DNA from: an uncultured Selenomonadales bacterium | GTDB lineage: Bacteria; Bacillota; Negativicutes; Selenomonadales; Selenomonadaceae | DNA: 51,858 nt | NCBI GenBank assembly: GCA_946543495.1 | Contig: CAMNLS010000001.1 | Span: 1-51,858 of the forward strand | Direction of reading: 5' to 3' | Shown: positions 2,930-45,096 of the stretch, one piece after another | How the letters are laid out: each line of letters opens with the position of its first letter | Position numbering within the stretch: position 1 is the stretch's first letter | Made by a program: the position numbers and the translations under genes | Notes under the pieces: model-generated | The model's database searches: none | What the model was told of the DNA's origin: nothing | Seen by the model: only the letters and a program-made list of their open reading frames with translations

Positions 2930-2941
2930 AGTGTAGCCTCC

Positions 2942-15107: not shown

Positions 15108-15213
15108 ACGTTAAGAGTTCGCAAAATAATTTCCCCGTCAATATTTATTGACTTCGTCTTACTTTTAAAGTTGTCACATACTAAACCTTTGACGGGTGAG
15201 CTGGATTGAAATT

Positions 15214-16863: not shown

Positions 16864-16889
16864 GAAAATGAATCCTTTAGCTAAGACTA

Positions 16890-16926
16890 AAAAAACCCGC
16901 CTCTGTTTTTGAGGTGGGCTTTTTAT
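16890..16926. terminator. Bidirectional rho-independent terminator between the GGDEF gene and rpsI
   Basis: AAAAAAA-CCCGCCTC-tgttttt-GAGGTGGG-CTTTTT: 8-bp stem (one G-U) with an A-run upstream and a T-run downstream. Confidence 0.75.
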
Positions 16927-16943
16927 TGCATTCAATCCATTTA

Positions 16944-17336
16944 TTAACGTTTTGAGAACTGGGAAGCCTTGCGAGCTTTCTTGAGTCCGTATTTGCGACG
17001 TTCTTTTTCGCGCGGGTCGCGAGTGACGAAGCCAGCCTTCTTGAGTGCGGGACGCAAGTCGGCATCAAGCTCCATAAGTGCGCGGGTAATGCCGTGACGA
17101 ATTGCGCCAGCTTGACCGGTCGTGCCGCCGCCTTTAACGTTGGCAATTACGTCGTATTTATCATTCATCTCGGTGAGGACGAGCGGCTGACGAACAATCA
17201 GCTCCAAAGTCTTCAAGCCGAAGTATTCTTCCATTGCGCGATTGTTAATCGTGACTTTGCCGTCGCCCGGAACCAAACGAACGCGAGCAACTGAACTTTT
17301 GCGGCGGCCTGTGCCGTAGTAGCTTACTTGTGCCAT
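16944..17336 (-). CDS. rpsI: 30S ribosomal protein S9
   Basis: 130-aa ORF. '[14 protein letters not shown]', '[19 protein letters not shown]' and C-terminal '[12 protein letters not shown]'. Confidence 0.97.
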
Positions 17337-23103: not shown

Positions 23104-24096
23104 TTGCAAGAGCTTATAAGCATTATAAACAGGATAAACGGCAAAAAAGTTTTAGTTATCGGCGATATGGTGGCTGATGTCTACGTTGACGGCAGAATTT
23201 CTAGGATTTCGCGCGAAGCTCCCGTTTTAATCCTCGAAAAAGCCGGCGAAAAGGTCGTGGCGGGCGGTGCGGCTAATGTCGTTGCTAATTCAGCCACGCT
23301 AGGCGCGGAAGTTTATGCTATCGGGGTCATCGGCGACGATTTTCACGCTGAAAACCTAAAAAATACTTTAAAAGGCTTCGGCGTTCACATTGAAGGGCTT
23401 ATTCATGATAAATCGCGCCCAACTATCTCTAAAACTCGAATTATCGCCGGCGGAAGGGCTACTGTCAGTCAACAAATCGTCAGAATCGACGAAGAGAGCA
23501 AAAAACCTATCAGCAGTGATGTTGAAGCGGAACTTATCAATAAAATCAATGAAATACTTCCAAAAGTCGACGGAATTATCATGAGCGACTACGGAGCCGG
23601 AACAATAACAAATAATGTCCGCAAATTGATTACTCGTTACGCAAATAAGAATAATATTCCTAGTATCGTTGATTCGCGGTACAATATCGGCGATTTTGAG
23701 GGCGTCGGATACATAAAACAGAATGATTCGGAGCTTGGACACTTCGTAGGCTATCCACTTAATGATATTAATGATTTAATCGGCGCAAGCAATAAAATTT
23801 TGACGAAACTTAACGTCGATGGCGTGTTAATTACTCGTGGCGATAAGGGAATGAGTTTATTTGAACGAAATGGAGCGGCTCATCACATTCCAGTTAGCGA
23901 TATGAGCGAAGTTTACGACGTTTCGGGCGCGGGAGACACTTGCGTTGCCGCTTTTCTACTTTCTTTGGCTGCAGGTGCTCAATCTTTGCTTGCAGCGAAA
24001 ATTTCTAACTTTGCGGCGGGAATTGCCGTTAGAAAACTCGGTACAAGCACCGTAAGCGCGACAGAATTAATTTCAACGCTTGAAAGGGCTAGATAA
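23104..24096 (+). CDS. hldA: D-beta-D-heptose 7-phosphate kinase (RfaE domain I, PfkB family)
   Basis: 330-aa ORF. PfkB motifs 'VVAGGAANVA' and 'DVSGAGDTCVAAF'. TTG start after GGAGGTGAGG. Immediately followed by the adenylyltransferase gene. Confidence 0.8.
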   Translation: MQELISIINRINGKKVLVIGDMVADVYVDGRISRISREAPVLILEKAGEKVVAGGAANVVANSATLGAEVYAIGVIGDDFHAENLKNTLKGFGVHIEGLIHDKSRPTISKTRIIAGGRATVSQQIVRIDEESKKPISSDVEAELINKINEILPKVDGIIMSDYGAGTITNNVRKLITRYANKNNIPSIVDSRYNIGDFEGVGYIKQNDSELGHFVGYPLNDINDLIGASNKILTKLNVDGVLITRGDKGMSLFERNGAAHHIPVSDMSEVYDVSGAGDTCVAAFLLSLAAGAQSLLAAKISNFAAGIAVRKLGTSTVSATELISTLERAR

Positions 24097-24558
24097 ATGC
24101 TGATTAACAGAAAAAATGTAGTTGAATTCCGCCGGAGCCTTAAAAATAAAAAAATCGTCTTTACTAACGGCTGTTTTGATATAATTCACGCCGGACACGT
24201 AAGATATTTGACTGCGGCTAAGAGTTTCGGCGATATTTTAGTCGTTGGACTCAATACTGATGAATCTGTTCGCCGTTTGAAGGGAAATTCACGCCCCATT
24301 AACAACCAAAACGACCGCGCAGAAGTTTTATTGGGACTTAAAGCCGTCGATTACGTGATTTTATTCGGCGAACGAACTGCAGAGGCTTTAATCGCCGAAA
24401 TTCAGCCCGATATTTACGTTAAGGGCGGCGATTACACGTTGGAAACGCTCCCTGAAGCTAAAATCGTGCAAAATTACGGCGGGCGTGTCGAATTAGTTAA
24501 TTTAGTCGCAGGAAAATCAACGACTAACATTATTGAAAAAATTTTAGCGGAGAAATGA
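24097..24558 (+). CDS. hldC: D-beta-D-heptose 1-phosphate adenylyltransferase (RfaE domain II)
   Basis: 153-aa ORF. Cytidylyltransferase signature 'FTNGCFDIIHAGHVRYL'. 'GLNTDESVRRLKG..RPI'. Confidence 0.85.
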   Translation: MLINRKNVVEFRRSLKNKKIVFTNGCFDIIHAGHVRYLTAAKSFGDILVVGLNTDESVRRLKGNSRPINNQNDRAEVLLGLKAVDYVILFGERTAEALIAEIQPDIYVKGGDYTLETLPEAKIVQNYGGRVELVNLVAGKSTTNIIEKILAEK

Positions 24559-24559
24559 T

Positions 24560-25585
24560 ATGGAAGACTTAAAAAACGTTTTAATTGTCAAGCTAAGCGC
24601 GCTGGGCGACGTAATTCACGCTTTGCCCGTCAGTTACGCCATAAAAGAAACTTTTCCCGACGCAAAAGTTACTTGGGTCGTCGAACCGCCCAGTTTAAGC
24701 CTTTTGGAAATGAATCCGTGCGTCGACAAGATAATTTTGTTCAAAAAGAAAGATTTCAGAACGCTAAAAGGGTTCATGAAGGAATTTTTCCCGTTCAAAC
24801 ACGAATTGCAAGAACAAAGTTACGATGCAGTGCTTGATTTGCAAGGATTATTCAAATCAGCGGCGATTGCGTTCTTTGCAAAGTCAAATATTAAGCTCGG
24901 AATATGCAATATGCGCGAAATGAGCGATAAAATTTCAAAACCAGTCGTCGGACAGAACGCTCAAGGGCATATCGTCGAAAGATACCTCGATACGGCGCGT
25001 GCAATGGGTTGCGTAGTCAATAAAATTACTTTTCCGATACAAATTCCCGTTGAACAGTCGGAAAAAGCGCGAGCAATCATGGAACACGCCGGAATTCGCG
25101 AAGGAAATCCCTACGTTGTGTTTGCAGTGGGGGCAAATTGGGTGAATAAACGCTGGCCGACGGAAAATTTCGCTGAATTAGGCGATTGGTTCTATCAACT
25201 AGCAGTTATTCCCGTTTTAATCGGTTCAGGAGACCTCGACGAGCAAATTTCTAAAGAAATCGAATCGAAAATGGAAATTCCGCCGATAAATTTAGTAAAC
25301 CGCACAAATATTCCGCAACTGGCGCATGTAATAAGAAGTTCGCGATTAATTATCGGCGGAGACACGGGTCCAGTACATTTGGGCGCGGCATTGGGCGTTC
25401 GGACTATTATGTTAATGGGACCGACGAATTTTGAACGAAATGGGGCTTTCGGGCAACTTCAAAACGTTATCGAAGTCGAAAGACCTTGCAAAGGCTGTTG
25501 GAAGAGATTTTGCCCCAAAAAAGAAATTTGTCTTGAAAAAATTCCCGTTAAATTCGTCGAAGATAAGATTAAATCGATGGGATAA
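24560..25585 (+). CDS. LPS heptosyltransferase (glycosyltransferase family 9, WaaC/WaaF-like)
   Basis: 341-aa ORF. 'ILIVKLSALGDVIHALP' N-terminus and 'GGDTGPVHLGAALG' C-terminal motif of GT9. Confidence 0.85.
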   Translation: MEDLKNVLIVKLSALGDVIHALPVSYAIKETFPDAKVTWVVEPPSLSLLEMNPCVDKIILFKKKDFRTLKGFMKEFFPFKHELQEQSYDAVLDLQGLFKSAAIAFFAKSNIKLGICNMREMSDKISKPVVGQNAQGHIVERYLDTARAMGCVVNKITFPIQIPVEQSEKARAIMEHAGIREGNPYVVFAVGANWVNKRWPTENFAELGDWFYQLAVIPVLIGSGDLDEQISKEIESKMEIPPINLVNRTNIPQLAHVIRSSRLIIGGDTGPVHLGAALGVRTIMLMGPTNFERNGAFGQLQNVIEVERPCKGCWKRFCPKKEICLEKIPVKFVEDKIKSMG

Positions 25586-25587
25586 GC

Positions 25588-25626
25588 AAAAATCCTCCCG
25601 ACCGCGCAGGTTGAGAGGATTTTTTA
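25588..25626. terminator. Bidirectional rho-independent terminator (GT9 gene / HxlR gene)
   Basis: AAAAATCCTCCCGACC-gcgc-AGGTTGAGAGGATTTTTT: long imperfect hairpin with an A-run and a T-run on either side. Confidence 0.7.
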
Positions 25627-25630
25627 TTGC

Positions 25631-25990
25631 CTAAGCCGATTTTTTAAGTATTTTTTCGCCCCAAATGTACAATTTATTGAGTGCAGGGATTAATTCTTTG
25701 CCAAAATCAGTTAATGAATACTCTACGACCTTCGGCGGCGCAGAAATTAGCTCGCTACGCACTACTAAACCGTCATTTTCCAATTCTCGCAGTGATTTTG
25801 TCAGCATAAAGTGCGTTATACCTGGTATTCGCCGCTTGAGTTCGTTAAATCGAGTATTTTCCTTTTCGTGAAGGTACCAAACTATCGGTAATTTCCATTT
25901 TGACCCGATTACGTCCATTGCGCATAGTATCGGGCATTTTTTATTGACAACATCGCTTAACGTTGAATCAATCGGATAATTTTTCTTCAT
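25631..25990 (-). CDS. HxlR-family winged-helix transcriptional regulator
   Basis: 119-aa ORF. 'CPILCAMDVIGSKWKLPIVWYL....RFNELKRRIPGITHFMLTKSLRELENDGLV' matches the HxlR/DUF24 pattern. Divergent from the OYE-like gene. Confidence 0.85.
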   Translation of the reverse strand: MKKNYPIDSTLSDVVNKKCPILCAMDVIGSKWKLPIVWYLHEKENTRFNELKRRIPGITHFMLTKSLRELENDGLVVRSELISAPPKVVEYSLTDFGKELIPALNKLYIWGEKILKKSA

Positions 25991-26075
25991 TTTAACCTCC
26001 TAAGGCAGATTTTTATGCGTTCTAGTCAAAAATTCACTTCAACATTATACTATACACAGTCAAGGAGGTTTTAAC

Positions 26076-27437
26076 ATGAAAAAACTTTTTGAATCAATCG
26101 AATTAAGCAATTTGCACATTAAAAATCGTCTTGTTAGGTCGGCTACGTGGGAAAATTTAGCAGAAAATGACGGTTCAATCGGCGAAAATACTTACGAAAT
26201 TTATCGCGAACTTTCAAAAGGCGGCGTAGGTGCGATTATAACCGGATTTACAAGCGTTTCGTCTGATGATTTTTATTTCGGCGGCATGATGCGCCTTTCC
26301 GACAATAAATTGATTCCGCAGTATAAAAAATTGGTCGAAATTATTCATAATGAGCACTGCGCGGCGATTAGTCAGCTTGCACTCGGCGCATTTTATAAAA
26401 ATTACGTAGAAATCGGCGAAAATGAACTTTCTACGGCTGAAGTCGAAAATATTATTAAAATGTTCGTAGACGCGGCGATTCGCGCTGAAATTTGCGGTTT
26501 CGACGGCGTTCAGATTCACGCGGCGCATTTTTTCTTCCTCAGTCGCTTTATCAGTTCAAAAATCAATCACCGAACAGATAAATTCGGCGGCTCAACGGAA
26601 AATCGCGCTCAAATTCTGCTTGAAATACTGCGCGGAATAAAAAAATCTGCGCCAAAACTCCACGTCACGATAAAAATTAACTCAAGTGACTTTGTTTACG
26701 GCGGTTTGGAAGAAAATGAGAGCCTTAAAATTTGTAAAATGCTTGAGGCGGCGGGAATTGATTTTATTTACGCGCAAACCAACGACGCGCTCGGAGAAAT
26801 TGAAACTTACAACGTAAAAACCGGCGAAAAAGAGCTAATCGGCTCGTGGAACGAAAGATTTTCCTACACCGACGAAGATATTGACGCATATTTGGATTTT
26901 GCGGCTAAAAATTATAAAAATATCATTTTGGCAGGGCATTCACTCGGCGCAAACAAAGTTATTTACTATTTGGCGCATCATCACGATAAAAATCGGGTTA
27001 AAAAGTTTATTTTGATGAGTCCGGCGAATTTAACGCACATGATGAGCGGAGTTAGCGACGGCGAACGCGATTTTATAGAAAAATTGGTTCGATACGGTCG
27101 CGGCGATAAAATTTTGCCGTTTTACTTTATGGGTTGGGTGTTATGCACGGCGAACACTGCGCATGACTGGTTGAGCGGCATTTTGGACAACACGAACGGG
27201 AAAAATTTCAGTCAGTTGGAGCAAATAACGCACGAAGGCGCGTTGATAATCGGAACGTACGATAATTTCACGGACGGAGACCCTTCGGGGTTCTTAAAAA
27301 TGATAAATTCGCACATGAAGACGGCTGAAAGGAATAAATTAATCTTCATCGAGCGAACGGGGCATACATATCAGCAAAAACACGCGGAGATAGCGGAGAT
27401 AATCAAAAATTTAGCGGTTGAATGGAGTTTGGAGTAA
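26076..27437 (+). CDS. Chimeric protein: truncated Old-Yellow-Enzyme-like TIM-barrel N-half fused to an alpha/beta-hydrolase C-half
   Basis: Residues 1 to about 240 are OYE-like ('LHIKNRLVRSAT', 'GGVGAIITG', 'HAAHFFFLSRFISSKINHRTDKFGGSTENRAQILLEIL'). From about residue 245 it reads as a hydrolase, with nucleophile elbow 'GHSLGAN' and a late 'GHTY'. Confidence 0.6.
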   Translation: MKKLFESIELSNLHIKNRLVRSATWENLAENDGSIGENTYEIYRELSKGGVGAIITGFTSVSSDDFYFGGMMRLSDNKLIPQYKKLVEIIHNEHCAAISQLALGAFYKNYVEIGENELSTAEVENIIKMFVDAAIRAEICGFDGVQIHAAHFFFLSRFISSKINHRTDKFGGSTENRAQILLEILRGIKKSAPKLHVTIKINSSDFVYGGLEENESLKICKMLEAAGIDFIYAQTNDALGEIETYNVKTGEKELIGSWNERFSYTDEDIDAYLDFAAKNYKNIILAGHSLGANKVIYYLAHHHDKNRVKKFILMSPANLTHMMSGVSDGERDFIEKLVRYGRGDKILPFYFMGWVLCTANTAHDWLSGILDNTNGKNFSQLEQITHEGALIIGTYDNFTDGDPSGFLKMINSHMKTAERNKLIFIERTGHTYQQKHAEIAEIIKNLAVEWSLE

Positions 27438-27443
27438 AAATTT

Positions 27444-27474
27444 AATCCTCGACGGATTTGTCGGGGATTTTTTA
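27444..27474 (+). terminator. Rho-independent terminator after the OYE/hydrolase gene
   Basis: AATCCTCGAC-ggattt-GTCGGGGATT followed by TTTT: 10-bp stem with one G-U. Confidence 0.75.
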
Positions 27475-27485
27475 GTTCAAAAGAG

Positions 27486-27650
27486 ATTTGGAGCGTCGAA
27501 AACGTCTGTGAAACTGATTTTGGAGCTTTGAAACGCGTTTGGAGCCGTGAAACTTGTTTGGAGCGTCAAAAACGTCTTTGAAACTGATTTTGGAGCTTTG
27601 AAATGAGTTTTGAGCTTTAAAAACGTCTTTGAAGGTGGATTTGAAAGGGC
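27486..27650. repeat. Intergenic array of degenerate short direct repeats (core TTTGGAGC / GAAA) including a 47-nt segment duplicated with 70-bp period
   Basis: TTTGGAGC at 27487, 27519, 27538, 27557 and 27589, plus TTTTGAGC at 27608 (spacings 32, 19, 19, 32, 19). Segment 27487-27533 is repeated at 27557-27603 with 2 mismatches. Confidence 0.8.
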
Positions 27651-27770
27651 AAAAATGAAATTCCCAAATATGGTAATTTGTCAAATGGAGGTTTAGCGGG
27701 CGAAAAAATTTTTTGGCGCGGCTGATAAAATCTGATATAATAGCGGAAAAACTAAATGGGAGGAGCTTGG

Positions 27771-29759
27771 GTGTTGAAGTTCCTAAAAAGATTCTTTGAA
27801 GGCGTCCAACGCGACGCAAGGTTATTTTTTTTCGTATTGATACTGCTTGAAGTCTATCGCGGGCTATTTATCCTCTTCATGTCGAATTACATGAGCACGG
27901 AGTCTGGAGCGGGGCAAATATTTTCTGCGATGTTCACGGGCTTGCGATTGAGCTTGAAAACGGCGGGCGCAGTAACTTTAATATCGTTTATTTTGGTTAC
28001 GATTATCGGTTTGCGAACTCGATTGCGGCTTTTAATCGGAATAATAGCGTCGCTGGCATTTTCAATGCTATTTATGCTTAGATTTCCGTATTATCGGGCG
28101 TTTCAATCGACATTTGGAATGGAAGTCGTGCAAGGTTGGAATGACGACCTTTTATCGATAATCGTCACGATGTTTCAGGAATATGGGATAGCTTGGCGGT
28201 TTATCGTCGCGTTGATTCTTACTTTAATATGTATTGCGGCTTTAAGTCGGCTTTTGATGATAAAAACGTTTCCGCTCCCCGAATTCGACACTAAAACAAA
28301 AAATTTTGGCTTTTCGGCGGGTTTAATCGTTGGAATTTTTATTTTTGGGCTGTTCGTAAGGTTCGGAGGAAGTTTTACGTATGGAAATGGGATAAATTGG
28401 GAGAATGCGGGCGTCACGACCGATAATTTTTTAAATGAATGCATACTTGACGACGCGCAGGCGTTATATAGGGCGCGAGCAATGGCAAAACGTATGGAAG
28501 CGGGCGAAATTTCAGGTGTTGATGCGAAAAAAATTGTAGAATCCGCGCAGATAGTCGCCGTAAACAAAAATTTGACAGAACAGAACCTTGCGCCCTACCT
28601 TGAACGCAAATCACCCGGCGAACGCATACCAAAACCCAAGCATATCTTTATAATTTTGGGCGAAACGTTCATGCAATGGCCGATGCTGGGAAAATATGAC
28701 GAATTATTGGTTGCGGAAGGGATAAAATCGTTAATCGCGGAAGAAAATTGTTATTACAGCCGAAATTTTATGCCGAACGGAGATTTTACGTCCACAGCGA
28801 TAACTGGACTGGTTACGGGCTTGCCTGACGTGAATATTCGCGTAAATTATCAATCTCGAACGTATGAAAAGCTTTATATCACGTCAATGGCGGCTCCGTT
28901 CAAAGAATTGGGCTACAAAGTCGATTTTTGGTATGGAGGAATGCCAAGTTGGGATTCGATAGCAAAAATGAGTTTAGCGCAGGGCTTTGACAATTTTTAT
29001 GGCTATCCAGACTTCAACGCGCCAAAACAGACGACTTGGGGCACAAAGGACGAAAATTTATTCAACGCCTTGCTTGCGCACCTTGCCAGCGAGCCTCCGA
29101 CGGTTCATTTAATCATGACGACGACGAATCACCCGCCGTATAATCTTGATTTGGCTGTTGAAGGCTACGATTTGGAAAAAGTCACCGAAGCTTTGAAAAA
29201 AATCCCGAACGTCGACGACGTGAATCAGTTAGCGGTTGAGCTTGGGCATTATTGGTATATGGACGAGGTTATCACTAACTTTGTCCGCGCCGCGAGCGCA
29301 AAGTTTCCGGAAAGTCTTTTCGTCGTGACGGGCGACCATGCAGTTCGTTGCGACCCTTCGACGCACCCGACTATCTTTGAACATCAAAGCGTACCGTTCG
29401 TGTTGTATGGCGCGGGCATTACCAAAGAAATTCTTCCGCCCGATGCCGTCGGCGACCACATTTCGATTGTCCCAACGATTATCGAACTGATTGCTCCGAA
29501 GGACTTTGCTTATTACTCAATCGCGCCGAGCCTCTTCAACAGTGACGGCGTAGGATTTAATACGCAGGCATTTGTCACGGCGAAGGTTGCCGGGCAGATT
29601 GATTCGGACGTTATCGAATTGTTGCCGCACGTCGCCTCCAACGAACTCAACGACGTGAACTTAAACGACGAACGCGAACACGCTACGCAAATAATCAGCG
29701 CAATGCGGACGGTTGCTTGGTGGATGATTACGAACGGACTTTTCCTCGGCAACGAATAA
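27771..29759 (+). CDS. LtaS/MdoB-like membrane sulfatase-family transferase (phosphoglycerol / phospho-substituent transferase)
   Basis: N-terminal block of about 5 TM helices plus an extracytoplasmic alkaline-phosphatase/sulfatase domain ('FIILGETF', 'TNHPPY', 'FVVTGDHA'). The track starts at ATG 27756, but GGGAGGAG-5 nt-GTG favours 27771. Confidence 0.7.
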   Translation: MLKFLKRFFEGVQRDARLFFFVLILLEVYRGLFILFMSNYMSTESGAGQIFSAMFTGLRLSLKTAGAVTLISFILVTIIGLRTRLRLLIGIIASLAFSMLFMLRFPYYRAFQSTFGMEVVQGWNDDLLSIIVTMFQEYGIAWRFIVALILTLICIAALSRLLMIKTFPLPEFDTKTKNFGFSAGLIVGIFIFGLFVRFGGSFTYGNGINWENAGVTTDNFLNECILDDAQALYRARAMAKRMEAGEISGVDAKKIVESAQIVAVNKNLTEQNLAPYLERKSPGERIPKPKHIFIILGETFMQWPMLGKYDELLVAEGIKSLIAEENCYYSRNFMPNGDFTSTAITGLVTGLPDVNIRVNYQSRTYEKLYITSMAAPFKELGYKVDFWYGGMPSWDSIAKMSLAQGFDNFYGYPDFNAPKQTTWGTKDENLFNALLAHLASEPPTVHLIMTTTNHPPYNLDLAVEGYDLEKVTEALKKIPNVDDVNQLAVELGHYWYMDEVITNFVRAASAKFPESLFVVTGDHAVRCDPSTHPTIFEHQSVPFVLYGAGITKEILPPDAVGDHISIVPTIIELIAPKDFAYYSIAPSLFNSDGVGFNTQAFVTAKVAGQIDSDVIELLPHVASNELNDVNLNDEREHATQIISAMRTVAWWMITNGLFLGNE

Positions 29760-37891: not shown

Positions 37892-38365
37892 TCATTCCTC
37901 CGTTTTTTTTCTGCCCTGCGTTATGTTCTTAGCAATGTCAATGAATAGTCGCCCGTCAAGGTGGTCAAGCTCGTGTTGAATGCAACGACTAAGCAAGCCT
38001 TCCGCCTCCAAAGTTTTCTTCTTGTTGAAGCGGCTAATGTACTCGACGCGAATTTTTTCCGCACGCTCCACATCGCCGAAAAGATTCGGGCAAGAAAGGC
38101 AACCTTCCTCGCCGACTTTAGAGCCTTCACGATAAACGATGACGGGGTTAATCAAGTCGTAGCGATTCTTCTTGTCCACGTCGACAACGCAAACGCGAAT
38201 TGACTCGCCAACTTGCGGCGCGGCAATTCCAACACCGTCACTCGCGTACATTGTCTCCGCCATGTCGTCTAGGAATCTCCTTAAGCGTTTGTCAATCTTA
38301 TCGACCGGTGCACAAATTTTTTTCAAGACGGGGTCGCCCGCCTTTTTTATTTCAAGCAATGCCAT
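37892..38365 (-). CDS. def: Peptide deformylase
   Basis: 157-aa ORF with 'GIAAPQVG', 'EGCLSCP' and 'HELDHLDG' metal-binding motifs. Confidence 0.95.
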   Translation of the reverse strand: MALLEIKKAGDPVLKKICAPVDKIDKRLRRFLDDMAETMYASDGVGIAAPQVGESIRVCVVDVDKKNRYDLINPVIVYREGSKVGEEGCLSCPNLFGDVERAEKIRVEYISRFNKKKTLEAEGLLSRCIQHELDHLDGRLFIDIAKNITQGRKKTEE

Positions 38366-38427: not shown

Positions 38428-39891
38428 TCAATATCCTTCAAGATGAATCTCCACGTTTGATGATTTGCCAGTGCGTTTGTCGATTGCTTCAAGTTTCATA
38501 AGCCCGCTTTTATCAATCGTCATCGTTAAAAGGGTCTCGTCGCCCTTCCTGCTACCTTCTATCCCGTGAATCTCAATCTCGCCGATGTAGGTTCCGTCTT
38601 CGGGCATATAAACTTCGTCTGTGCATTCCGATTCGTAGACCGCAATATAAGTGCTCGATAAACCGTCGCGAACCTTACTGGAATTTGATTCGCCGCTCGT
38701 CGGCAATTCGTCGCCCTTGTAAATGATATTGTAAATCCGTAGGCGGTTATAATCTTTGTAGCGGCTGAAGTCTTGAATATACCTCGCGCCGTAAGAGAAT
38801 TTGCAGATGTCATGAAGGAAACTTTCTTCCGTCAAGTGTTCGGCATAAATCGCCGCTCCAAACGCAATAGCTTTCTCCGGCTCAAAGATTTTTATCTCGA
38901 TGCCGGGATAATTCTTCTCGAACGCCTTGCGGACTTGCGGCATGTTTGAACTACCGCCGACAAGGACAATGTAATCAATCTTAGTCGAACAGTTCTGCTT
39001 GAGCTTGTCGACCATGCGCATTGTATCCTGCAAAAGCTCGGACGTTATCTTCTCGAACTCCGCGCGCGTTATCTCGAAGTCGTAATCATCGCCGCCGACT
39101 TCAACATATGATTCGTATCGTTCAAGCCGTGACAGCTGATGCTTAGCTTTAATCGCCGCCTTTAAGATTTTATTCTCCGCCCGTGCATTGAACTTTATAG
39201 CGGGTTCTTGCTCGCGACACTTGCGCTTAATCAGCTCGCCAAGAAGTTTATCCCAATCACGCCCGCCAATCCTCAGCATTTCCGAATCAATGACCTTGTA
39301 CCACTCCGAAGAATTTTTATCGGAACGAACAATCGCAACGTCGCACGTACCGCCGCCCAAGTCATATACTAAAATAGTTTTATCGTCCTCACCGGCGGGC
39401 GCATTGAAGTAAGCAATGGCAGCGGCAACTGGTTCGCGAATGAATCCAAGAACTTTCAAGCCGGCTTCCTCCTGCGCGGCGTCGCGAATGAAGTTAAGCT
39501 CGCGAAGTGTAAACGCCGCCGGCACCGAGACAACTGCGCCGTCAATCTCCTGCGACATGAGCTGTTGATATTCAATGCCCTCAAGTGCAACTTGATTAAT
39601 CTCGCGGAAGATGTGCCCGACGATTTTTTTCTTGTCGAAGGTCTTGCCGTCAAGCTGGTAAGTTTTTTGGTTAGGATTGCTAATCTCCATTTTGATATTG
39701 CGAACGATGTTATCCGGGTGACGGTCGCCTTGGTCTTCAGCGGGAATACCAATCAAAATGCCTTGACTGTTGTCGTAGTAGAAAACCGACGGCAGTCCGT
39801 ATTGTCCACTATGCAAGAGCGTTGCGGGGTTTCCATTTATCATCGCGGCGGGCAATGAAAAGCTCGTGCCGAAGTCTATTCCTATCTTCAT
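38428..39891 (-). CDS. Non-canonical Hsp70-family ATPase with truncated substrate-binding domain
   Basis: 487-aa ORF. Actin/Hsp70 NBD motifs 'KIGIDFGTSFS', 'VYDLGGGTCDVAIV', 'IVLVGGSSNMPQVR'. The C-terminal 100 aa or so end in an Hsp70 SBD-beta-like 'LLTMTIDKSGLMKLEAIDKRTGKSSNVEI'. No helical lid and no EEVD. Confidence 0.8.
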   Translation of the reverse strand: MKIGIDFGTSFSLPAAMINGNPATLLHSGQYGLPSVFYYDNSQGILIGIPAEDQGDRHPDNIVRNIKMEISNPNQKTYQLDGKTFDKKKIVGHIFREINQVALEGIEYQQLMSQEIDGAVVSVPAAFTLRELNFIRDAAQEEAGLKVLGFIREPVAAAIAYFNAPAGEDDKTILVYDLGGGTCDVAIVRSDKNSSEWYKVIDSEMLRIGGRDWDKLLGELIKRKCREQEPAIKFNARAENKILKAAIKAKHQLSRLERYESYVEVGGDDYDFEITRAEFEKITSELLQDTMRMVDKLKQNCSTKIDYIVLVGGSSNMPQVRKAFEKNYPGIEIKIFEPEKAIAFGAAIYAEHLTEESFLHDICKFSYGARYIQDFSRYKDYNRLRIYNIIYKGDELPTSGESNSSKVRDGLSSTYIAVYESECTDEVYMPEDGTYIGEIEIHGIEGSRKGDETLLTMTIDKSGLMKLEAIDKRTGKSSNVEIHLEGY

Positions 39892-39897
39892 TGAATG

Positions 39898-40977
39898 TTA
39901 CCTCCCGAAAAAATTTCCAAACCGCGTAGCATTATTCGTTGACTGCGCGGCAGGTTCGACGATTTCAACTTCAGCCTTCCTAAGGACTCGCCCCTTATAA
40001 ATCAAGCCGACGTTCAAAACCTTAGCAACCTTAGCCGAATTCGACGGGCGGACGGTGTTCGTTACCTTGTGCCGCGAAGTGTCAAGCGGAATATCCGTTT
40101 CGTTGATGAGTTCGGCACCGAGCATCGCCAATGACTGTTCCACGTAACGAGCAAAACTTTTGCAACGCTTGATAAGTTTATCGTAGCCCTTTTGCGTATC
40201 GGGTTGCGGGTGACGTTGTGCAGTCTCGTTAATCATGTCGAACAGCTGCACCAGTTGATTTATCGGCTCCTCCAATGTCTTGAAGTCAAGCCCGTCCCGA
40301 ATGTCCGAAATAGTTTTCAGCGTGCCTTGTAAGCGCGGCAACTCGTCTTGCAACGCGAGTTGAACTTTTTTTATCTCGTCGATGATTTTCTCGTCGTCGG
40401 TGCGTCGATTATCGGCGAATGTCTTTAAGCTCTGTAAAAGTTCTTTATCTTGTTCATTGGCTTGCGGCGTTGGAATCGAAACCTCAACGCGCTTCTCAAC
40501 TATTCGTTCGACAGGTACTTCAATCCGTTTCTCAATGATTCGTTCACCGGCACAAAACTTTCCGAGCCCTTCGTCCAATGCAATTAAATTCTTTTGCAAC
40601 GGTTGCAAACCTTCGTTGCTTAGTTGCACGCCGTGAAAGATGCGTTCGGCATTACTTGCAAAGACATTAAGGCACGATTCAAGATTTTCAGCAAGGGCGA
40701 CGTTTAGCCCGTAGACGACAGTGAACAAGTCGAAGCTCGTGTACAGATTGAATGACACTTGCACGGGCTCCAGCGAAAAATTTTTCGTTGGCAAGACTAG
40801 ATTATTGACTCTGCACAGCGTGGATATAAGCGGCGAAGTTTTTTTAGTCGTCAGCTCGTAGAAAGTCATCGTCATTAGTTGAAGATAAAAATTTTTCAGG
40901 ACGGGTACGGCTGCGGCATTCGGATTGTTCTTCGCGAAGGTCAATGCCTCTTTATAAAGTTCAAGGCTGTTAATCAC
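39898..40977 (-). CDS. GrpE-like protein with unknown N-terminal domain and internal RI(I/V)EKR(I/V)EV repeat
   Basis: 359-aa ORF. C-terminal 'LGAELINETDIPLDTSRHKVTNTV....VAKVLNVGLIYKGRVLRKAEVEIV' parallels the GrpE 'G.e.i...G..FDP..HeAv....V.evl.kGY.l.drVlRpA.V.V' pattern. A long helical segment precedes it. The N-terminal 150 aa or so match no family I recognise. Stop lies 6 nt from the Hsp70-like start. Confidence 0.5.
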   Translation of the reverse strand: MINSLELYKEALTFAKNNPNAAAVPVLKNFYLQLMTMTFYELTTKKTSPLISTLCRVNNLVLPTKNFSLEPVQVSFNLYTSFDLFTVVYGLNVALAENLESCLNVFASNAERIFHGVQLSNEGLQPLQKNLIALDEGLGKFCAGERIIEKRIEVPVERIVEKRVEVSIPTPQANEQDKELLQSLKTFADNRRTDDEKIIDEIKKVQLALQDELPRLQGTLKTISDIRDGLDFKTLEEPINQLVQLFDMINETAQRHPQPDTQKGYDKLIKRCKSFARYVEQSLAMLGAELINETDIPLDTSRHKVTNTVRPSNSAKVAKVLNVGLIYKGRVLRKAEVEIVEPAAQSTNNATRFGNFFGR

Positions 40978-40994
40978 GATTTGTTCCTCCTTTC

Positions 40995-42068
40995 CTATTG
41001 TAAGAGTGAACGATATTTTTCTCGAAGTCTGGTAGCTTCTTCAGCAATTTTTTTCAGCGTGGCGTTCGATGACTCAATCATTTTCTTATTTTCTATGGAT
41101 AGCCTTTCTTTTGTTTCTTGAAGTAATTTAGCAGGTGTAATCACGGTGGGTGCGGCGGGTTCCTCTTCGACAGGCGCGGGTGGTTGTTCTTTGGTTTGCT
41201 TGAGTAAATTTAAATCGTTCGTCACGAGATACGCCAAAGAAATATCGTCGTTGCTACCGTGCTCGGTCATATAGGGCAACAGTTCATTGCGCAACGCCTC
41301 GCGCGTCTTCTCAAAGCCGCTATTAATCATGCTATCAATCACGGTGCTGGCGTAGAGCTTGTAAAGGTACTTCGCGTTGTCGCCAATCGGATAGCAATCG
41401 TCTAGACCGTCGGTGCTAAGGAAAATCGCGACGGGCGCAAGCGGCGAATCCTCCGCGCAATCCAAGACGACGTGACGAAACTTTTTATAGCCGTCAACGT
41501 CACAAAGCGAAGTCGTCACGTATCCAAAGCTATCACTGTCGGGCGGCACGGGCACTTTAAATTCTCCGTTCTTCTGCAACACAACACAGCTTCCGTCGCC
41601 GATTTGAACAATCAACACTTGCCAGCCGATTGACACCGCGCAGATTAAAGTTGTGCCGTAAGCCACAGGGATATATTGTTCGTCGGTAGTGAATCGCGCC
41701 TTGTATTTGTCGCTGACGTTTTGCCAACGCGGCTCATCATCGCGGACGGGATTTTTTATCCAATCGGCTTTGACTGCTTCGCGCCACGCCTCCCACAATT
41801 TGAGTTCAAAATTTATGATGCTACTGTCTGAAAAAGTTTCGCCCGCTGAAATGCCATCGCAAAAAATTTTTATCTGTTCAAAGGCAATTTCAACTGCAAG
41901 TCGTGCGCCCGTGTCAGAGCGGAAATAATCTTTGCCGCCATGACCATCAGCAATGGCAATCGCTTGCACGCCGTCGAACTCCAGCACTTGAGCAAAGTCC
42001 TGGCAGGGTAAGCCGCGTTCACGATACTTTTTCCCGTGAACGGACGCGGCGAACGTGCTGAATCTCAT
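40995..42068 (-). CDS. PP2C-family Ser/Thr protein phosphatase with coiled-coil C-tail
   Basis: 357-aa ORF. 'CQDF', 'AIADGHGG', 'FLSTDGLDD' and 'GSNDDISLAYL' metal-binding Asp motifs. Pro-rich linker, then a helical tail. Confidence 0.8.
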   Translation of the reverse strand: MRFSTFAASVHGKKYRERGLPCQDFAQVLEFDGVQAIAIADGHGGKDYFRSDTGARLAVEIAFEQIKIFCDGISAGETFSDSSIINFELKLWEAWREAVKADWIKNPVRDDEPRWQNVSDKYKARFTTDEQYIPVAYGTTLICAVSIGWQVLIVQIGDGSCVVLQKNGEFKVPVPPDSDSFGYVTTSLCDVDGYKKFRHVVLDCAEDSPLAPVAIFLSTDGLDDCYPIGDNAKYLYKLYASTVIDSMINSGFEKTREALRNELLPYMTEHGSNDDISLAYLVTNDLNLLKQTKEQPPAPVEEEPAAPTVITPAKLLQETKERLSIENKKMIESSNATLKKIAEEATRLREKYRSLLQ

Positions 42069-42084
42069 TTGACCTCACGCCCCT

Positions 42085-42876
42085 TTACCATTCCTCATCG
42101 TCAAAGACCTGGCTTGTGTGAACTGGATTGATTGCGCGTGAAGAAACATTCCCGATGATTTGAAGAATAGTCTTTAGCTCTTCAGCCGTAAGCCCTCTGT
42201 ATTTCCTTGCCGCCGATGAAAACTCCGCAACGAAATTAATCGCCTCTTCCATTTCACGGATATTCAATCGCCGCTCGGATTTACTTTTCTCCGGCGAATA
42301 ACTTATGTGTTTGATAATTTCCTCTGGATTTAAAGTGTGCAGGATTATGCCTTCCTTGCCGACGAACTCGCGCAGAACATCATCATTTGCCGCACCATAG
42401 CCAACCGCCACACGCGAAGCTATCTTGTACCAGATATTTTTCCTGAGTTCAGCCAAAGCAGATTTATAGTCGTCAGTCGGCTCGCCGTCCATAAAGAGAA
42501 TCAAAAGCGGCGATATGAATTTCGAGGCGGGATTAAGAAAGCCGCTCTCGTCAGAAAGTTTTTCGTTCAAGGCACTCAAAGCCGTGCCCATAGATGTAAT
42601 TCCGCCCGCTTCCAAATCATTCCAAGAGTTCTGCACGTCTTCGGGCTTAAGCAATTCCTCGCCGCCGACAACCCATTTAGCTTCGTTGCTGAACGTCATA
42701 ATCGCCACTCGGATTTCAACGTTAGGATTTGAATCGTTCTTGGCAATCAATTCGGACATAAAATTTTCAATCGCGCTGTTTAGGGCACCAATCGGCGCAC
42801 CCACCATGCTCCCCGACGTGTCTAGCAAAAAGATTACGGGGCAAACCTTGCGCGGCATCTTATCAAACATACTCAT
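42085..42876 (-). CDS. TerY-like von Willebrand factor A (vWA) protein, copy 2, ends in DDEEW
   Basis: MIDAS 'FLLDTSGSM', 'GGITSMG', 'LFMDGEPTD'. About 65% identical by eye to copy 1 over the vWA core. Start set at ATG 42876 (GGGGAG upstream). Confidence 0.85.
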   Translation of the reverse strand: MSMFDKMPRKVCPVIFLLDTSGSMVGAPIGALNSAIENFMSELIAKNDSNPNVEIRVAIMTFSNEAKWVVGGEELLKPEDVQNSWNDLEAGGITSMGTALSALNEKLSDESGFLNPASKFISPLLILFMDGEPTDDYKSALAELRKNIWYKIASRVAVGYGAANDDVLREFVGKEGIILHTLNPEEIIKHISYSPEKSKSERRLNIREMEEAINFVAEFSSAARKYRGLTAEELKTILQIIGNVSSRAINPVHTSQVFDDEEW

Positions 42877-42910
42877 AAAAATTTCTCCCCCGTCCTTTGA
42901 TAGCAAGCTT

Positions 42911-42944
42911 AGAAAAATCCCCTGAAAGACTTTTCAAGGGATTG
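42911..42944 (-). terminator. Intra-operon rho-independent terminator/attenuator hairpin between the two vWA genes
   Basis: Perfect 8-bp stem AATCCCCT/AGGGGATT (42916-42923 and 42937-42944) with a 13-nt loop. On the minus strand it is followed by TTTTTCT. Confidence 0.55.
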
Positions 42945-42970
42945 TGTCTTATTCAAGCTCAGCAAAAGAT

Positions 42971-43702
42971 TTACCATTCCTCGTCCGCCGTGGCAAGTGA
43001 GCCGCCTTGATTCTGAAGAGCTTCGGCAGTCTTTTGCGTGTTGTCATCGGGATTAACGTTGCCCGTGTTGTCTACGCTACTACCTTGACTTGCTACACGC
43101 GACGACGTGACGGCGATAAATCTAATCATATTCCGCAACTCTTTAGCGTCGTTAGTGTGAATGACCGTTTCGGCGTTGCCCGTGAATTCGCGCAGGACAT
43201 CATCATTTGAATCGCCATAGCCGACCGCCACACGCGCCGCAACCTTATACCAGTTGTTATTCTTCAAGCGTTGCAAGCCGTCTTGATAATCGTCAGTGGG
43301 TTCGCCGTCCGATAAGAGGAACAACACTGGCGCAACCGAGCCGGAGGCGTGTTTCATGAAGCCATGAGAGACGGAAAGTTTATCGTTCAAAGCGCGGAAC
43401 GCCTCGCCCATAGACGTGGGACCGCCCGCGTTTAAATCGTTCCAAGAGTTCTGCACGTCTTCAGGCGATAGCAACTCATTGCCGCCGACAATCCAATCTG
43501 CGTCGAAACTGAACGTCATTATCGCGACTTTAATCTCGTTGTCGGGATTGGAATCGTTCATTGAAATAAGTTCGGGCAAGACATTTTCAATCGCACTGTT
43601 GACGGCTCCAATCGGCGCACCTGTCATGCTCCCAGACGTGTCCAGCAAAAAAATCACGGGGCACATCTTACGCGGCATTTCCAGTTTATCGAGCATTCCC
43701 AT
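42971..43702 (-). CDS. TerY-like vWA protein, copy 1, ends in ADEEW
   Basis: 243-aa ORF. MIDAS 'FLLDTSGSM', 'GGPTSMG', 'LLSDGEPTD'. Lies 13 nt downstream of the kinase stop. Confidence 0.85.
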   Translation of the reverse strand: MGMLDKLEMPRKMCPVIFLLDTSGSMTGAPIGAVNSAIENVLPELISMNDSNPDNEIKVAIMTFSFDADWIVGGNELLSPEDVQNSWNDLNAGGPTSMGEAFRALNDKLSVSHGFMKHASGSVAPVLFLLSDGEPTDDYQDGLQRLKNNNWYKVAARVAVGYGDSNDDVLREFTGNAETVIHTNDAKELRNMIRFIAVTSSRVASQGSSVDNTGNVNPDDNTQKTAEALQNQGGSLATADEEW

Positions 43703-43715
43703 TTAAAATTCCTCC

Positions 43716-45038
43716 TTAGCTGTTGACGACGACTTGAGCAATGTTTTTATTATAAAAGTCAATCTGAGCGTCCGCGCCCAAGACGAGCACTTCGCCGGGC
43801 TGCTTAGCTAAAATTTTTCCGCTGGGCGTCTTAATCTTCCAGTTGAAGTTTGAATCGTTCTTGAGTCCAAATTTGCCGGGCTTCTCCAAGATGACTGCCG
43901 CCTTTGTCGCGAAGTCCTCCGATAAAGAATTCATGTGATAATCGTAGAGCACAACATCTTTGAAAATCGGAACGGTGACATCTTGCCCCGCGCGCTTGCC
44001 GAAGAGTAAATGACCTATTGCCTTAACTGACTTCTTGCAAGACTGACAGACCGTCACACGGTCGCTTTCCAAAAACATTTCCTCGCCGCAATGCGGGCAA
44101 CGAATTAACGAACTCTTCAGCCGCATTAAGATATTGAACCAATCTTGCTCAAGCAAACGCTCCTTGCCGCCCAATAAACTTTCTTGGCTGAACGACTGAC
44201 AGAACGCCTCTTGAATGAAACTCGGAAAGAATCCCCACAACCTTAGCGCGTTTTGATGTAGGAGCTTATGCGGTGCGTTCGATGAATCTTTTTTGTCGAA
44301 GATGAACAGCGGCTCCGTTCCGTAAATTTTTTTCTCATACTTATTCGTAAGCGCGGGATAATTCGTCTTGATGCCTTCGAGCGGGTGATTGCCGACGAGT
44401 AGCATGAAGAGTATCACCGCCAAAGAAAATCTGTCCGTTGACTTATCGGGCTTCTTCTCACCGCGCACGACTTCCGGAGCCATGTAACGAGCCTTGCCCA
44501 ATACGCCGGAGTATTCACCGTGCCCCATGACGTTATCATTGTCGCAGATTAGAACTTTGCCGTTCGTCGGGTCGATAGAGAAATTGCCGTCGTTGAGGTC
44601 TTGATAATTGTAGCCTTTGTTGTGCAGAGCCTTGAAGGCGGCAACGATATTCAACGCGGCATCGACCATCGCGGCAACGTTCTTGAATTGAGCCTTCGCC
44701 AAGAGATAGCGCGAAAAGCTTTCGTAGCCCTTCGGAAAGATTTTCATCGTGTAGCCGAAGGTCTCGCCTTCAACGTACTCGGTTAATTGCTCCGGCCAAA
44801 GGAAAGCTTCCGACGGCGAACCGACTTTTATATTGTCTGCAAGGTGTCTATAGAACTGCAACGGGTCTTTGAGGTAGCCGAGGAAGAACCATTTAAGCGC
44901 GCGTTCCTCGCCCGTGTCATAGCGCACGCGATAAACGATGCCTTGACCGCCCTCGCCGAGCTTATCGGTCACAGTGATTGTCCGCCCGTCCGCTAGTCTC
45001 AAAGTCTGATTCTTTCTTAATGGAACGAAGTCCGCCAT
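43716..45038 (-). CDS. Ser/Thr protein kinase (Hanks-type) with C-terminal zinc ribbon and beta-rich domain
   Basis: Gly loop 'LGEGGQGIVYRV', 'ERALKWF' Lys, catalytic loop 'YQDLNDGNF', 'ICDNDNV' (DFG equivalent), 'ARYMAPEV'. Then 'CPHCGEE...CQSCKK' and a tail of about 110 aa. Start at ATG 45038 (GAAGGGGTG upstream); the track starts at 45068. Confidence 0.85.
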   Translation of the reverse strand: MADFVPLRKNQTLRLADGRTITVTDKLGEGGQGIVYRVRYDTGEERALKWFFLGYLKDPLQFYRHLADNIKVGSPSEAFLWPEQLTEYVEGETFGYTMKIFPKGYESFSRYLLAKAQFKNVAAMVDAALNIVAAFKALHNKGYNYQDLNDGNFSIDPTNGKVLICDNDNVMGHGEYSGVLGKARYMAPEVVRGEKKPDKSTDRFSLAVILFMLLVGNHPLEGIKTNYPALTNKYEKKIYGTEPLFIFDKKDSSNAPHKLLHQNALRLWGFFPSFIQEAFCQSFSQESLLGGKERLLEQDWFNILMRLKSSLIRCPHCGEEMFLESDRVTVCQSCKKSVKAIGHLLFGKRAGQDVTVPIFKDVVLYDYHMNSLSEDFATKAAVILEKPGKFGLKNDSNFNWKIKTPSGKILAKQPGEVLVLGADAQIDFYNKNIAQVVVNS

Positions 45039-45067
45039 AAATATCACCCCTTCAAAAGTTTTCGTCA

Positions 45068-45096
45068 ATTATAATTCGTTGCCCCTCTTTAATCAA
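45068..45096 (-). promoter_or_regulatory. Sigma70-type promoter of the kinase-vWA-PP2C-GrpE-like-Hsp70-like operon (TTGATT-17 nt-TATAAT)
   Basis: On the minus strand: -35 TTGATT (45096-45091), 17-nt spacer, -10 TATAAT (45073-45068). About 30 nt upstream of the kinase ATG. Confidence 0.5.

Follow-up and report, generated by a model that had tools for sequence, protein, structure and literature searches.

The TerY-P triad, composed of a von Willebrand factor A (vWA) protein that is TerY-like, a PP2C phosphatase and a Ser/Thr kinase (Anantharaman, Iyer & Aravind 2012, as described in PMC11090510 and PMC4978471), was first proposed as a metal-sensing switch, according to the account quoted in PMC11090510. 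A TerY-P system whose kinase carries an OB fold is a validated anti-phage system (Gao 2020, as cited in PMC11090510), and TerY-P of Pseudomonas aeruginosa was protective whether the multiplicity of infection was low or high (bioRxiv 10.1101/2022.08.12.503731). An Hsp70 with GrpE, and a kinase with a Zn ribbon and a β-rich domain together with PP2C and vWA proteins, were described as accessory themes 2 and 3 of the GAP1-N2 double-GTPase conflict systems (Kaur et al. 2020, PMC7159879); the three accessory themes of these systems are called non-overlapping there, and theme 3 was reported only in actinobacteria. In type III CoCoNuT systems, the Hsp70-like protein CnuD and TerY-P are found around an McrBC-like GTPase (PMC11090510). 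Here we analyzed an operon of an uncultured Selenomonadales bacterium (Selenomonadaceae), located in a 51,858-nt stretch of contig CAMNLS010000001.1 (assembly GCA_946543495.1; hereafter the window), in which a TerY-P-type triad is joined directly to an Hsp70-like ATPase and a GrpE-like protein. An earlier sequence-only reading of the window held that the function of the triad is not experimentally established, a statement that the phage resistance cited above has made out of date.

The operon consists of six genes in one direction on the minus strand (38428-45068 in the open-reading-frame [ORF] listing). In the 5' to 3' order, they encode a Ser/Thr kinase of 440 residues (43716..45038; Pfam Pkinase, 1.9e-17, with additional Zn-ribbon matches), vWA-1 of 243 residues (42971..43702; Pfam VWA, 7.5e-15), vWA-2 of 263 residues (42085..42876; Pfam VWA, 1.8e-14), a PP2C-family Ser/Thr phosphatase of 357 residues (40995..42068; Pfam PP2C_2, 1.7e-28), the GrpE-like protein of 359 residues (39898..40977; Pfam GrpE, 2.1e-8, residues 195-340 only) and the Hsp70-like ATPase of 487 residues (38428..39891; Pfam HSP70, 1.8e-59). 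The kinase most likely starts at the ATG at 45038, with the ribosome-binding site GAAGGGG upstream, and vWA-2 most likely starts at the ATG at 42876. The TTG at 45068, which the mechanical ORF call used as the kinase start, overlaps the -10 box and is not the true start. Counted from the likely starts, the gaps between the genes measure 13, 94, 16, 17 and 6 nt. Independent gene calls on a near-identical contig (L099) gave the same protein sizes of 440, 243, 263, 357, 359 and 487 residues, and the layout and gaps given by the sequence-only reading were thus confirmed. None of the six proteins contains a transmembrane-like segment, indicating that the system is cytoplasmic. Judged from the names that its closest homologues carry, the source organism is a Selenomonadaceae bacterium of the rumen type.

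A five-component core of kinase, vWA, PP2C, GrpE-like and Hsp70-like proteins was seen in ~17 lineages, including Selenomonadaceae, Enterococcus, Clostridia and Planctomycetia. The short form, found in Selenomonadaceae (window/L089/L099, L001/L094, L003, L090-L093 and L095), has the order kinase-vWA-PP2C-GrpE-like-Hsp70-like with a single vWA gene (L001, L003, L091 and L093-L095) and protein identities of 44-76%. The long form, found outside Selenomonadaceae, has the order kinase-vWA-PP2C-DUF6273-GrpE-like-Hsp70-like, usually followed by a transglutaminase-core gene; it is represented by Enterococcus sp. 669A (L005), metagenome-assembled genomes (MAGs) of a Planctomycetia (L006) and a Clostridiales Family XIII bacterium (L007), and the metagenome contigs L096, L098 and L101. 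At all loci examined but one, the GrpE-like gene immediately precedes the Hsp70-like gene, and PP2C, vWA and kinase genes adjoin them where the contig reaches. In a Roseburia MAG (L009), all five components are present but permuted to vWA-PP2C-kinase-GrpE-Hsp70. Furthermore, two independent assemblies (L008 and L097) contain a continuous ORF in which a complete GrpE-like protein is fused to an Hsp70 nucleotide-binding domain (NBD), and this natural fusion supports a direct partnership of the two proteins. All five proteins co-vary across loci. That their association persists through changes of phylum, gene order and fusion argues strongly for a functional unit. The sequence-only reading had named a lack of synteny in other genomes as refuting its hypothesis; the core arrangement recurs across phyla, and the hypothesis is not refuted on this point. 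The comparison showed that the genes form a dedicated module, in which the Hsp70-like and GrpE-like proteins are partners and are functionally tied to the kinase/PP2C/vWA switch.

In L097 (409-6927) and likewise in L008, the GrpE-like::Hsp70 fusion gene lies after the gene of a 1,485-residue membrane protein and before a second Hsp70-like gene. This membrane protein carries transmembrane helices at its N-terminus and a DUF6273 domain at its C-terminus, and also long EEKERKRKLEE-type repeats. The upstream sequence that is available contains no gene for a kinase, vWA or PP2C.

The triad of the window agrees with the TerY-P architecture that the sequence-only reading had assigned to it. Both have a stand-alone vWA protein with a metal ion-dependent adhesion site (MIDAS), an intact PP2C and a kinase with a C-terminal Zn ribbon, encoded by adjacent, co-directional genes, and the Roseburia variant even has the vWA-PP2C-kinase order. 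However, the module is coupled to a private Hsp70-like/GrpE-like pair, whereas the reported partners of the triad are ter genes, McrBC/CoCoNuT, helicases and nucleases. In addition, the order in the module is kinase-vWA-PP2C, and its vWA has a conserved acidic-aromatic tail. No TerY-specific profile in Pfam or NCBIfam matched the window vWAs. The TerY-P system of Gao (2020) shares the three enzymatic/adaptor activities and is the nearest system with an experimentally supported function, but it has three genes and no chaperone components; its kinase carries a C-terminal OB fold, and that of the module a Zn ribbon and a β-rich domain without a sequence match. By analogy with validated TerY-P, and considering the mobile-element context of the long form, we favor, at about an even chance, the reading that the module is a cytoplasmic conflict system of TerY-P type, directed against phages or mobile elements, in which an Hsp70 cycle would gate a phosphorylation switch with the kinase as output. 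The phosphorylation-gated vWA/Hsp70 assembly machine that the sequence-only reading had proposed is likewise a hypothetical mechanism.

The kinase comprises a kinase domain, a CxxC...CxxC Zn ribbon and a conserved β-rich C-terminal domain of ~100 residues (PGKFGLKN...IDFGN). Its motifs GEGGQG, ALKW, YQDLNDGN, DNDN and MAPE were invariant across phyla in the alignment, as were the PP2C motifs ADGHG, IGDG, TDGxDD and S.DD[IV]S and the MIDAS residues DxSxS, T and D of the vWAs; the C-terminal region of PP2C is variable and low-complexity or coiled. Zn-ribbon matches were found in up to 6 of 8 kinase orthologues, those in the window kinase being weak Pfam matches. The β-rich C-terminal domain has no sequence match in Pfam or the PDB, and a PDB profile search with it returned only a chance-level segment of methionine aminopeptidase. 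An FHA-like identity for this domain, considered from the pattern GLKNxS..W...G...PGE..L...I.FG, was not supported, with only Zn ribbons matched in Pfam at E ≤ 10.

vWA-1 consists of a vWA domain with an intact MIDAS, an S/T-rich linker and the C-terminal acidic-aromatic tail DEEW. It showed 60-76% identity to the single vWA of other short- and long-form loci (44% in L007), which identifies it as the orthologue of the vWA that the module has in single copy elsewhere. We compared the tails of window vWA-1 and vWA-2 with those of L001, L003, L005-L007, L089, L093-L096 and L098. In 16 of the 17 orthologous copies, the C-terminus is an acidic run with a terminal W or F, preceded by a low-complexity linker; the variants include DEEW, DETW, EDDF, DDSW, DDIW, VDDEF and PEDEW. 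A DP(D/N)D(N/T)T motif is conserved in the linker before the tail. By this pattern, the tail is a candidate for a docking peptide or a phospho-site.

vWA-2 shares 64% identity with vWA-1 and has a helical insert of ~70 residues ahead of its DEEW tail. Its identity to the vWAs of other loci is 38-62%, and 50-62% at the loci where vWA-1 shows 60-76%; judged from these values, it is a lineage-specific, faster-diverging duplicate of vWA-1. The sequence-only reading had taken the duplicated vWA gene as a feature of the system, which did not hold. vWA-2 is confined to the immediate lineage of the window and is missing in L091, which shares the position beside the peptide deformylase gene def, and the duplication is thus recent and lineage-specific. 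The second vWA of L096 has an independent origin. L089, a metagenome contig whose operon matches that of the window at 99-100% identity, has an in-frame 108-nt (36-residue) deletion within the vWA fold of vWA-2 (2852-3532), whereas vWA-2 is full length in the near-identical L099. This deletion suggests relaxed constraint on the duplicate, and vWA-2 may be decaying in the lineage of the window.

The Hsp70-like protein has an NBD, a conserved interdomain linker and a β-subdomain of the substrate-binding domain (SBDβ). It aligns to residues ~5-508 of DnaK and ends at the end of SBDβ, which indicates that the α-helical lid is missing. Throughout the subfamily, the phosphate-1, phosphate-2, adenosine and interdomain-linker motifs do not vary, and neither do the residues equivalent to K70, E171 and T199 of DnaK. 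Together with the invariant motifs of the triad in the cross-phylum alignments, these results bear out the earlier statement that the catalytic motifs are intact in every enzyme. An obvious alternative is that the two chaperone genes are simply the housekeeping grpE and dnaK of the organism, placed beside the triad by chance. Both proteins indeed score above the Pfam gathering thresholds for HSP70 and GrpE (34.4 bits against 25.8 for the latter). However, on the NCBIfam equivalogs the Hsp70-like protein reached 179 bits against a cut-off of 648 for DnaK, and the GrpE-like protein 17-18 bits against cut-offs of 176-348 for GrpE. The Hsp70-like protein is, moreover, lidless at 487 residues with only ~29% identity to DnaK, and the pair accompanies the triad across phyla. 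Canonical chaperone genes also exist in relatives, namely hrcA-grpE-dnaK-dnaJ in a Selenomonadales contig (L043) and dnaK-dnaJ in a Selenomonadaceae contig (L011), with DnaK scores of 970-993 bits. The housekeeping explanation is refuted at the family level, leaving it hardly any probability, and the pair is by its sequences distinct from DnaK/GrpE, as the sequence-only reading had proposed in calling it private. Compared with canonical DnaK-GrpE-DnaJ, the module shares the Hsp70 NBD with an intact ATPase site, the conserved linker, SBDβ and the GrpE fold, but it has no lid, no J-protein and no hrcA operon, and its GrpE-like protein has an extra N-domain of 145 residues.

A scan of a genome collection with the Hsp70-like alignment picked generic Hsp70 peptides (ILVYDLGGG and FI[RK]EPVAAA) as seeds, and the 80 loci that it kept were nearly all housekeeping DnaK at ~29% identity; the only new ones were L009 and canonical-operon controls. 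We also observed a third Hsp70 paralogue of 545 residues in two Selenomonadaceae MAGs (L011:9989-11626 and L012), lying ~7 kb away from the canonical dnaK-dnaJ. Its NBD shares 35% identity with the window Hsp70-like protein, and its C-terminus is unlike DnaK.

In an AlphaFold2 model, the GrpE-like protein begins with a helical N-domain (residues 1-145; 40543-40977). A disordered linker with VEK-type repeats connects it to a C-terminal part made of one long helix, a bundle of helices and a small β-domain. The top 12 matches of the model in a Foldseek search of the PDB were all GrpE with a probability of 1.0, and at the level of the model this confirmed the GrpE fold, with its long dimerization helix, helical bundle and C-terminal β-domain. 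The N-domain was predicted with high confidence when modeled alone (pLDDT score of 92.7), and a PDB fold search with it found no match (best E = 1.6, TM-score ≤ 0.30). The fold search gave no support to the idea that the domain reads the vWA tail in the manner of TPR or 14-3-3 proteins. An HMMER search of 1.84 billion representative proteins returned 40 GrpE-like sequences with E ≤ 1e-30; relaxing the limit to E ≤ 1e-10 raised the number to 58, and GrpE of canonical size (~170-230 residues, aligned to the C-terminal part of the profile only) entered the list near E = 1e-4. Judged by these scores, the GrpE-like family is small and distinct. A third homologue search, using the GrpE-like profile, gave mostly Selenomonadaceae candidates and added only P0231 (Planctomycetia).

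Residues 150-170 of the GrpE-like protein (window 40468-40530) contain short VEK/IEK repeats, IEKRIEVPVERIVEKRVEV, whose copy number differs among relatives. These repeats gave spurious matches to PF12314-containing proteins (P0101-P0109), two of which are labeled 'flap endonuclease-1-like' at the source. A conserved HPxxD of the GrpE-like protein falls within a loop of the bundle, and canonical GrpE has this loop too.

The two component sets of the module are both known from the GAP1-N2 systems, which also share the kinase architecture and occasional NBD-only Hsp70 copies, comparable with the fusion and second Hsp70 of L008/L097. In the GAP1-N2 systems, however, the themes are attached to DO-GTPase, GAP1 and FNIII-repeat proteins and to a DnaJ fused to an FNIII protein. 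No GTPase or GAP1 gene was found in or beside the operon in the window or in 15 related loci, and no FNIII-repeat protein in the window module or related loci; the long form has a DUF6273 protein instead. CoCoNuT differs in that its Hsp70 has no GrpE partner and is tied to McrB/McrC, a helicase and HEPN. The CoCoNuT Hsp70 homologues have degenerate Walker A-like motifs, with Walker B-like motifs usually kept, and are predicted RNA binders (PMC11090510), whereas the module Hsp70-like protein keeps its ATPase motifs. Neither the window operon nor the related loci contained an McrB-like NxD GTPase, McrC-N (DUF2357), CnuH helicase or HEPN CnuE. The parts of the module have thus been described separately before (PMC7159879), and what is new here is the direct coupling of the two themes. 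A full-text literature search found no description of this combination, although the 2012 Ter paper, which lay outside the search, may have mentioned Hsp70 before.

Upstream of the operon, a promoter-like site, TTGATT-17-TATAAT (45068..45096, minus strand), lies ~30 nt upstream of the kinase ATG. With a 10/12 match this site, which the sequence-only reading had noted as a near-consensus promoter, is the best in the region, but the region contains 9 such sites against 8.5 ± 2.5 expected from shuffled sequence, which is the chance level, so that it is the position of the site that speaks for it. Downstream, the peptide deformylase gene def (37892-38365, minus strand; Pfam Pep_deformylase, 2.4e-50) follows the Hsp70-like stop codon after 62 nt, and the terminator scan found no terminator-like site in this gap. 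The first terminator-like hairpin with a T-run lies 3' of def (37876-37854, minus strand), and def may therefore be co-transcribed with the operon by read-through. Besides the window, def adjoins the module only in L089, L090, L091 and L099, which belong to the clade of the window. At other loci, the gene 3' of the Hsp70-like gene varies and encodes a transglutaminase-like protein, a DUF805 protein, an EamA transporter or a coiled-coil protein. The DUF805 gene of L001 (12573-13001) and L094 (12239-12667) starts 12 nt after the Hsp70-like gene and encodes a small membrane protein of 142 residues, which could be a lineage-specific membrane output. Elsewhere in the window, the regions 15001-17000 and 24001-29000 have a GC content of 0.38-0.42, compared to a window average of ~0.47-0.50, and may be islands.

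The genomic contexts of the long form support the favored conflict-system reading. A coupling protein of a type IV secretion system (T4SS) is encoded upstream of the module in L007, L096 and L098. In addition, genes for a relaxase and a Tox-GHH nuclease are present in L096, an integrase gene in L006, and phage capsid and ClpP genes in L098. Hsp70-like orthologues at 53-63% identity are labeled Enterococcus, Eubacteriales, Clostridiales Family XIII, Synergistaceae and Planctomycetia, and this scatter over Bacillota, Planctomycetota and Synergistota implies horizontal transfer. Within Selenomonadaceae, the module occurs in at least four different chromosomal contexts. These data showed that the module is rare and patchily distributed and that its longer form is carried on mobile elements. 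The absence of effector and mobility genes noted by the sequence-only reading therefore holds within the window and does not extend to the relatives, which add DUF6273 and transglutaminase-like genes and sit by T4SS coupling protein, relaxase or integrase genes. DUF6273 reportedly has a C-type-lectin-like fold and is a frequent target of diversity-generating retroelements (PMC10743442; bioRxiv 10.1101/2024.10.15.618418), which suggests a ligand-recognition role in the long form.

In L007 (1-1458), L096 (1920-4596) and L098 (2941-5544), the coupling protein gene is followed by a shared gene for a protein of ~430 residues without a Pfam or PADLOC match and then by the module, in the same order. 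This fixed order suggests a conserved cargo slot of integrative and conjugative elements (ICEs).

The same contexts could also mean that the module is cargo that serves the mobile elements themselves, for establishment, anti-defense, exclusion or addiction on ICEs, with the Selenomonadaceae copy as a domesticated or decaying remnant. Besides the shared order after the coupling protein and the relaxase and integrase genes, this explanation draws on the loss of the DUF6273 and transglutaminase genes from the short form, the vWA-2 deletion of L089 and an orphan Hsp70-like gene in a Synergistaceae MAG contig (L100). Defense systems are, however, common ICE cargo too, so the context does not discriminate between the two. 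In Selenomonadaceae, where the proteins are 44-76% identical, the active sites of all five core genes are invariant. This indicates purifying selection rather than decay. PLSDB plasmids and phages gave no matches. We regard the cargo explanation as quite improbable.

Several observations weigh against a conflict system, and many of them concern the window copy and its clade. The flanking genes of the window operon are housekeeping genes, with YggS-like, CNNM/CorC and def on one side and a cbiE-type methylase, a cyclase and cbiB on the other; these Pfam assignments agree with the neighbors def and cbiE named in the sequence-only reading. The GC content of the operon is the same as that of its neighbors, and in the clade of the window the module stays fixed beside def, suggesting vertical inheritance. 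A search for an empty site via the exact Def and CbiE proteins found only one further site, L099, which is occupied. The module of L101 lies near the housekeeping genes rnpA-yidC-jag, and no orthologues were found in viral contigs, PLSDB plasmids or GenBank phages. The orphan Hsp70-like orthologue (L100:5375-7255; 63% identity) occurs without a GrpE-like gene or triad; it is preceded by an ORF of 97 codons for a coiled-coil protein and by a perfect 13-bp inverted repeat, GTAGGGGCGGATA...TATCCGCCCCTAC. Pfam and motif checks of the module proteins detected neither a J domain nor a conserved HPD motif, and the absence of both a J-domain protein and ter genes nearby had been noted correctly by the sequence-only reading.

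The search for defense genes was of mixed outcome. Among 93 flanking ORFs examined for a location in defense islands, a check that the sequence-only reading had asked for, mobile-element genes lay beside the long form and housekeeping genes beside the short form, and the flanks of the short form showed no enrichment in recognizable defense genes. Strong matches to the GajB model (UvrD helicase) in the flanks most likely represent the UvrD/PcrA helicase beside ligA in L007. In the PADLOC scan, no model named TerY matched the vWA, PP2C or kinase at E ≤ 0.1, the inclusion of TerY-P models in PADLOC being unconfirmed. The kinase matched mad6, PD-T4-6 and other generic kinases, with an additional weak match to PDC-M61B, and scans of the core and accessory proteins gave no system-level match. 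The short form also has no recognizable sensor or effector besides the kinase.

These points are in line with a physiological, non-immune module, in which the Hsp70/GrpE pair would sense an endogenous client or proteostasis or metal stress and set the phosphorylation of targets via the kinase and PP2C, thereby regulating growth, envelope or developmental processes. In addition to the housekeeping surroundings of the window copy and L101, the native GC content, the stable position in the clade of the window and the missing effector and defense-library matches, this explanation can point to the wide occurrence of the module in rumen Selenomonadaceae (~100 clusters at 90% identity) and to the original proposal of a metal-sensing switch for TerY-P, as quoted in PMC11090510. 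On the other hand, it is opposed by the horizontal transfer implied by the scattered 53-63%-identity orthologues, by the conjugative and integrative elements that carry the long form, by the differing contexts within Selenomonadaceae and by the great rarity of the family. The lectin-like, transglutaminase-like and second-vWA genes are, furthermore, gained and lost as is typical of conflict systems. A physiological role is, in our view, somewhat unlikely.

In the favored conflict-system reading, the Hsp70-like protein, cycled by its private exchange factor, would hold or remodel a client; candidates are the vWA or its tail, the kinase and a protein of foreign origin. If this client were lost or gained during infection or stress, the kinase/PP2C switch could, by analogy, be flipped. 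Titration of DnaK is known to release sigma-32, which provides the analogy for the client-titration step; this step is speculative, which again weighs against the reading. As the output, the kinase would phosphorylate proteins of the host or of the invader, and the switch would be reset by PP2C. In the long form, the DUF6273 C-type-lectin-like protein probably supplies ligand recognition, and the transglutaminase-like (papain-fold) protein is probably an extra output. The short form of Selenomonadaceae would then have lost the DUF6273 and transglutaminase genes, and the lineage of the window would have gained the second vWA. The window copy has housekeeping neighbors and no lectin-like or transglutaminase-like gene, and of all versions of the module it is the least 'defense-like'. 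A more specific proposal, which we consider unlikely, is that of a chaperone-gated immune kinase: a J-independent, lidless Hsp70 with its own exchange factor would act as the infection sensor and license a TerY-P kinase that blocks infection. The Hsp70 would bind a phage-made or phage-displaced client, possibly passed via the vWA tail and the N-domain of the GrpE-like protein, with PP2C returning the system to its resting state.

Pairs of Hsp70 and GrpE are predicted parts of conflict systems, and the module joins such a pair directly to a TerY-P-type switch. With its five-gene core, the module is compact, soluble and, judged by its motifs, enzymatically intact. It also offers natural variants, namely the permuted order, the GrpE-like::Hsp70 fusion, forms with or without the lectin-like and transglutaminase-like genes, and the duplicated vWA. 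The confidently predicted N-terminal domain would be a new addition to a GrpE-type exchange factor, and the vWA tail is a candidate docking peptide. If the module is indeed a chaperone-gated immune kinase, it would be the first bacterial immune pathway that senses via the Hsp70 ATPase cycle and would open a way into the mechanism of TerY-P defense. If its function is physiological, it would still be an unusual, specialized Hsp70 system that operates without a J-protein.

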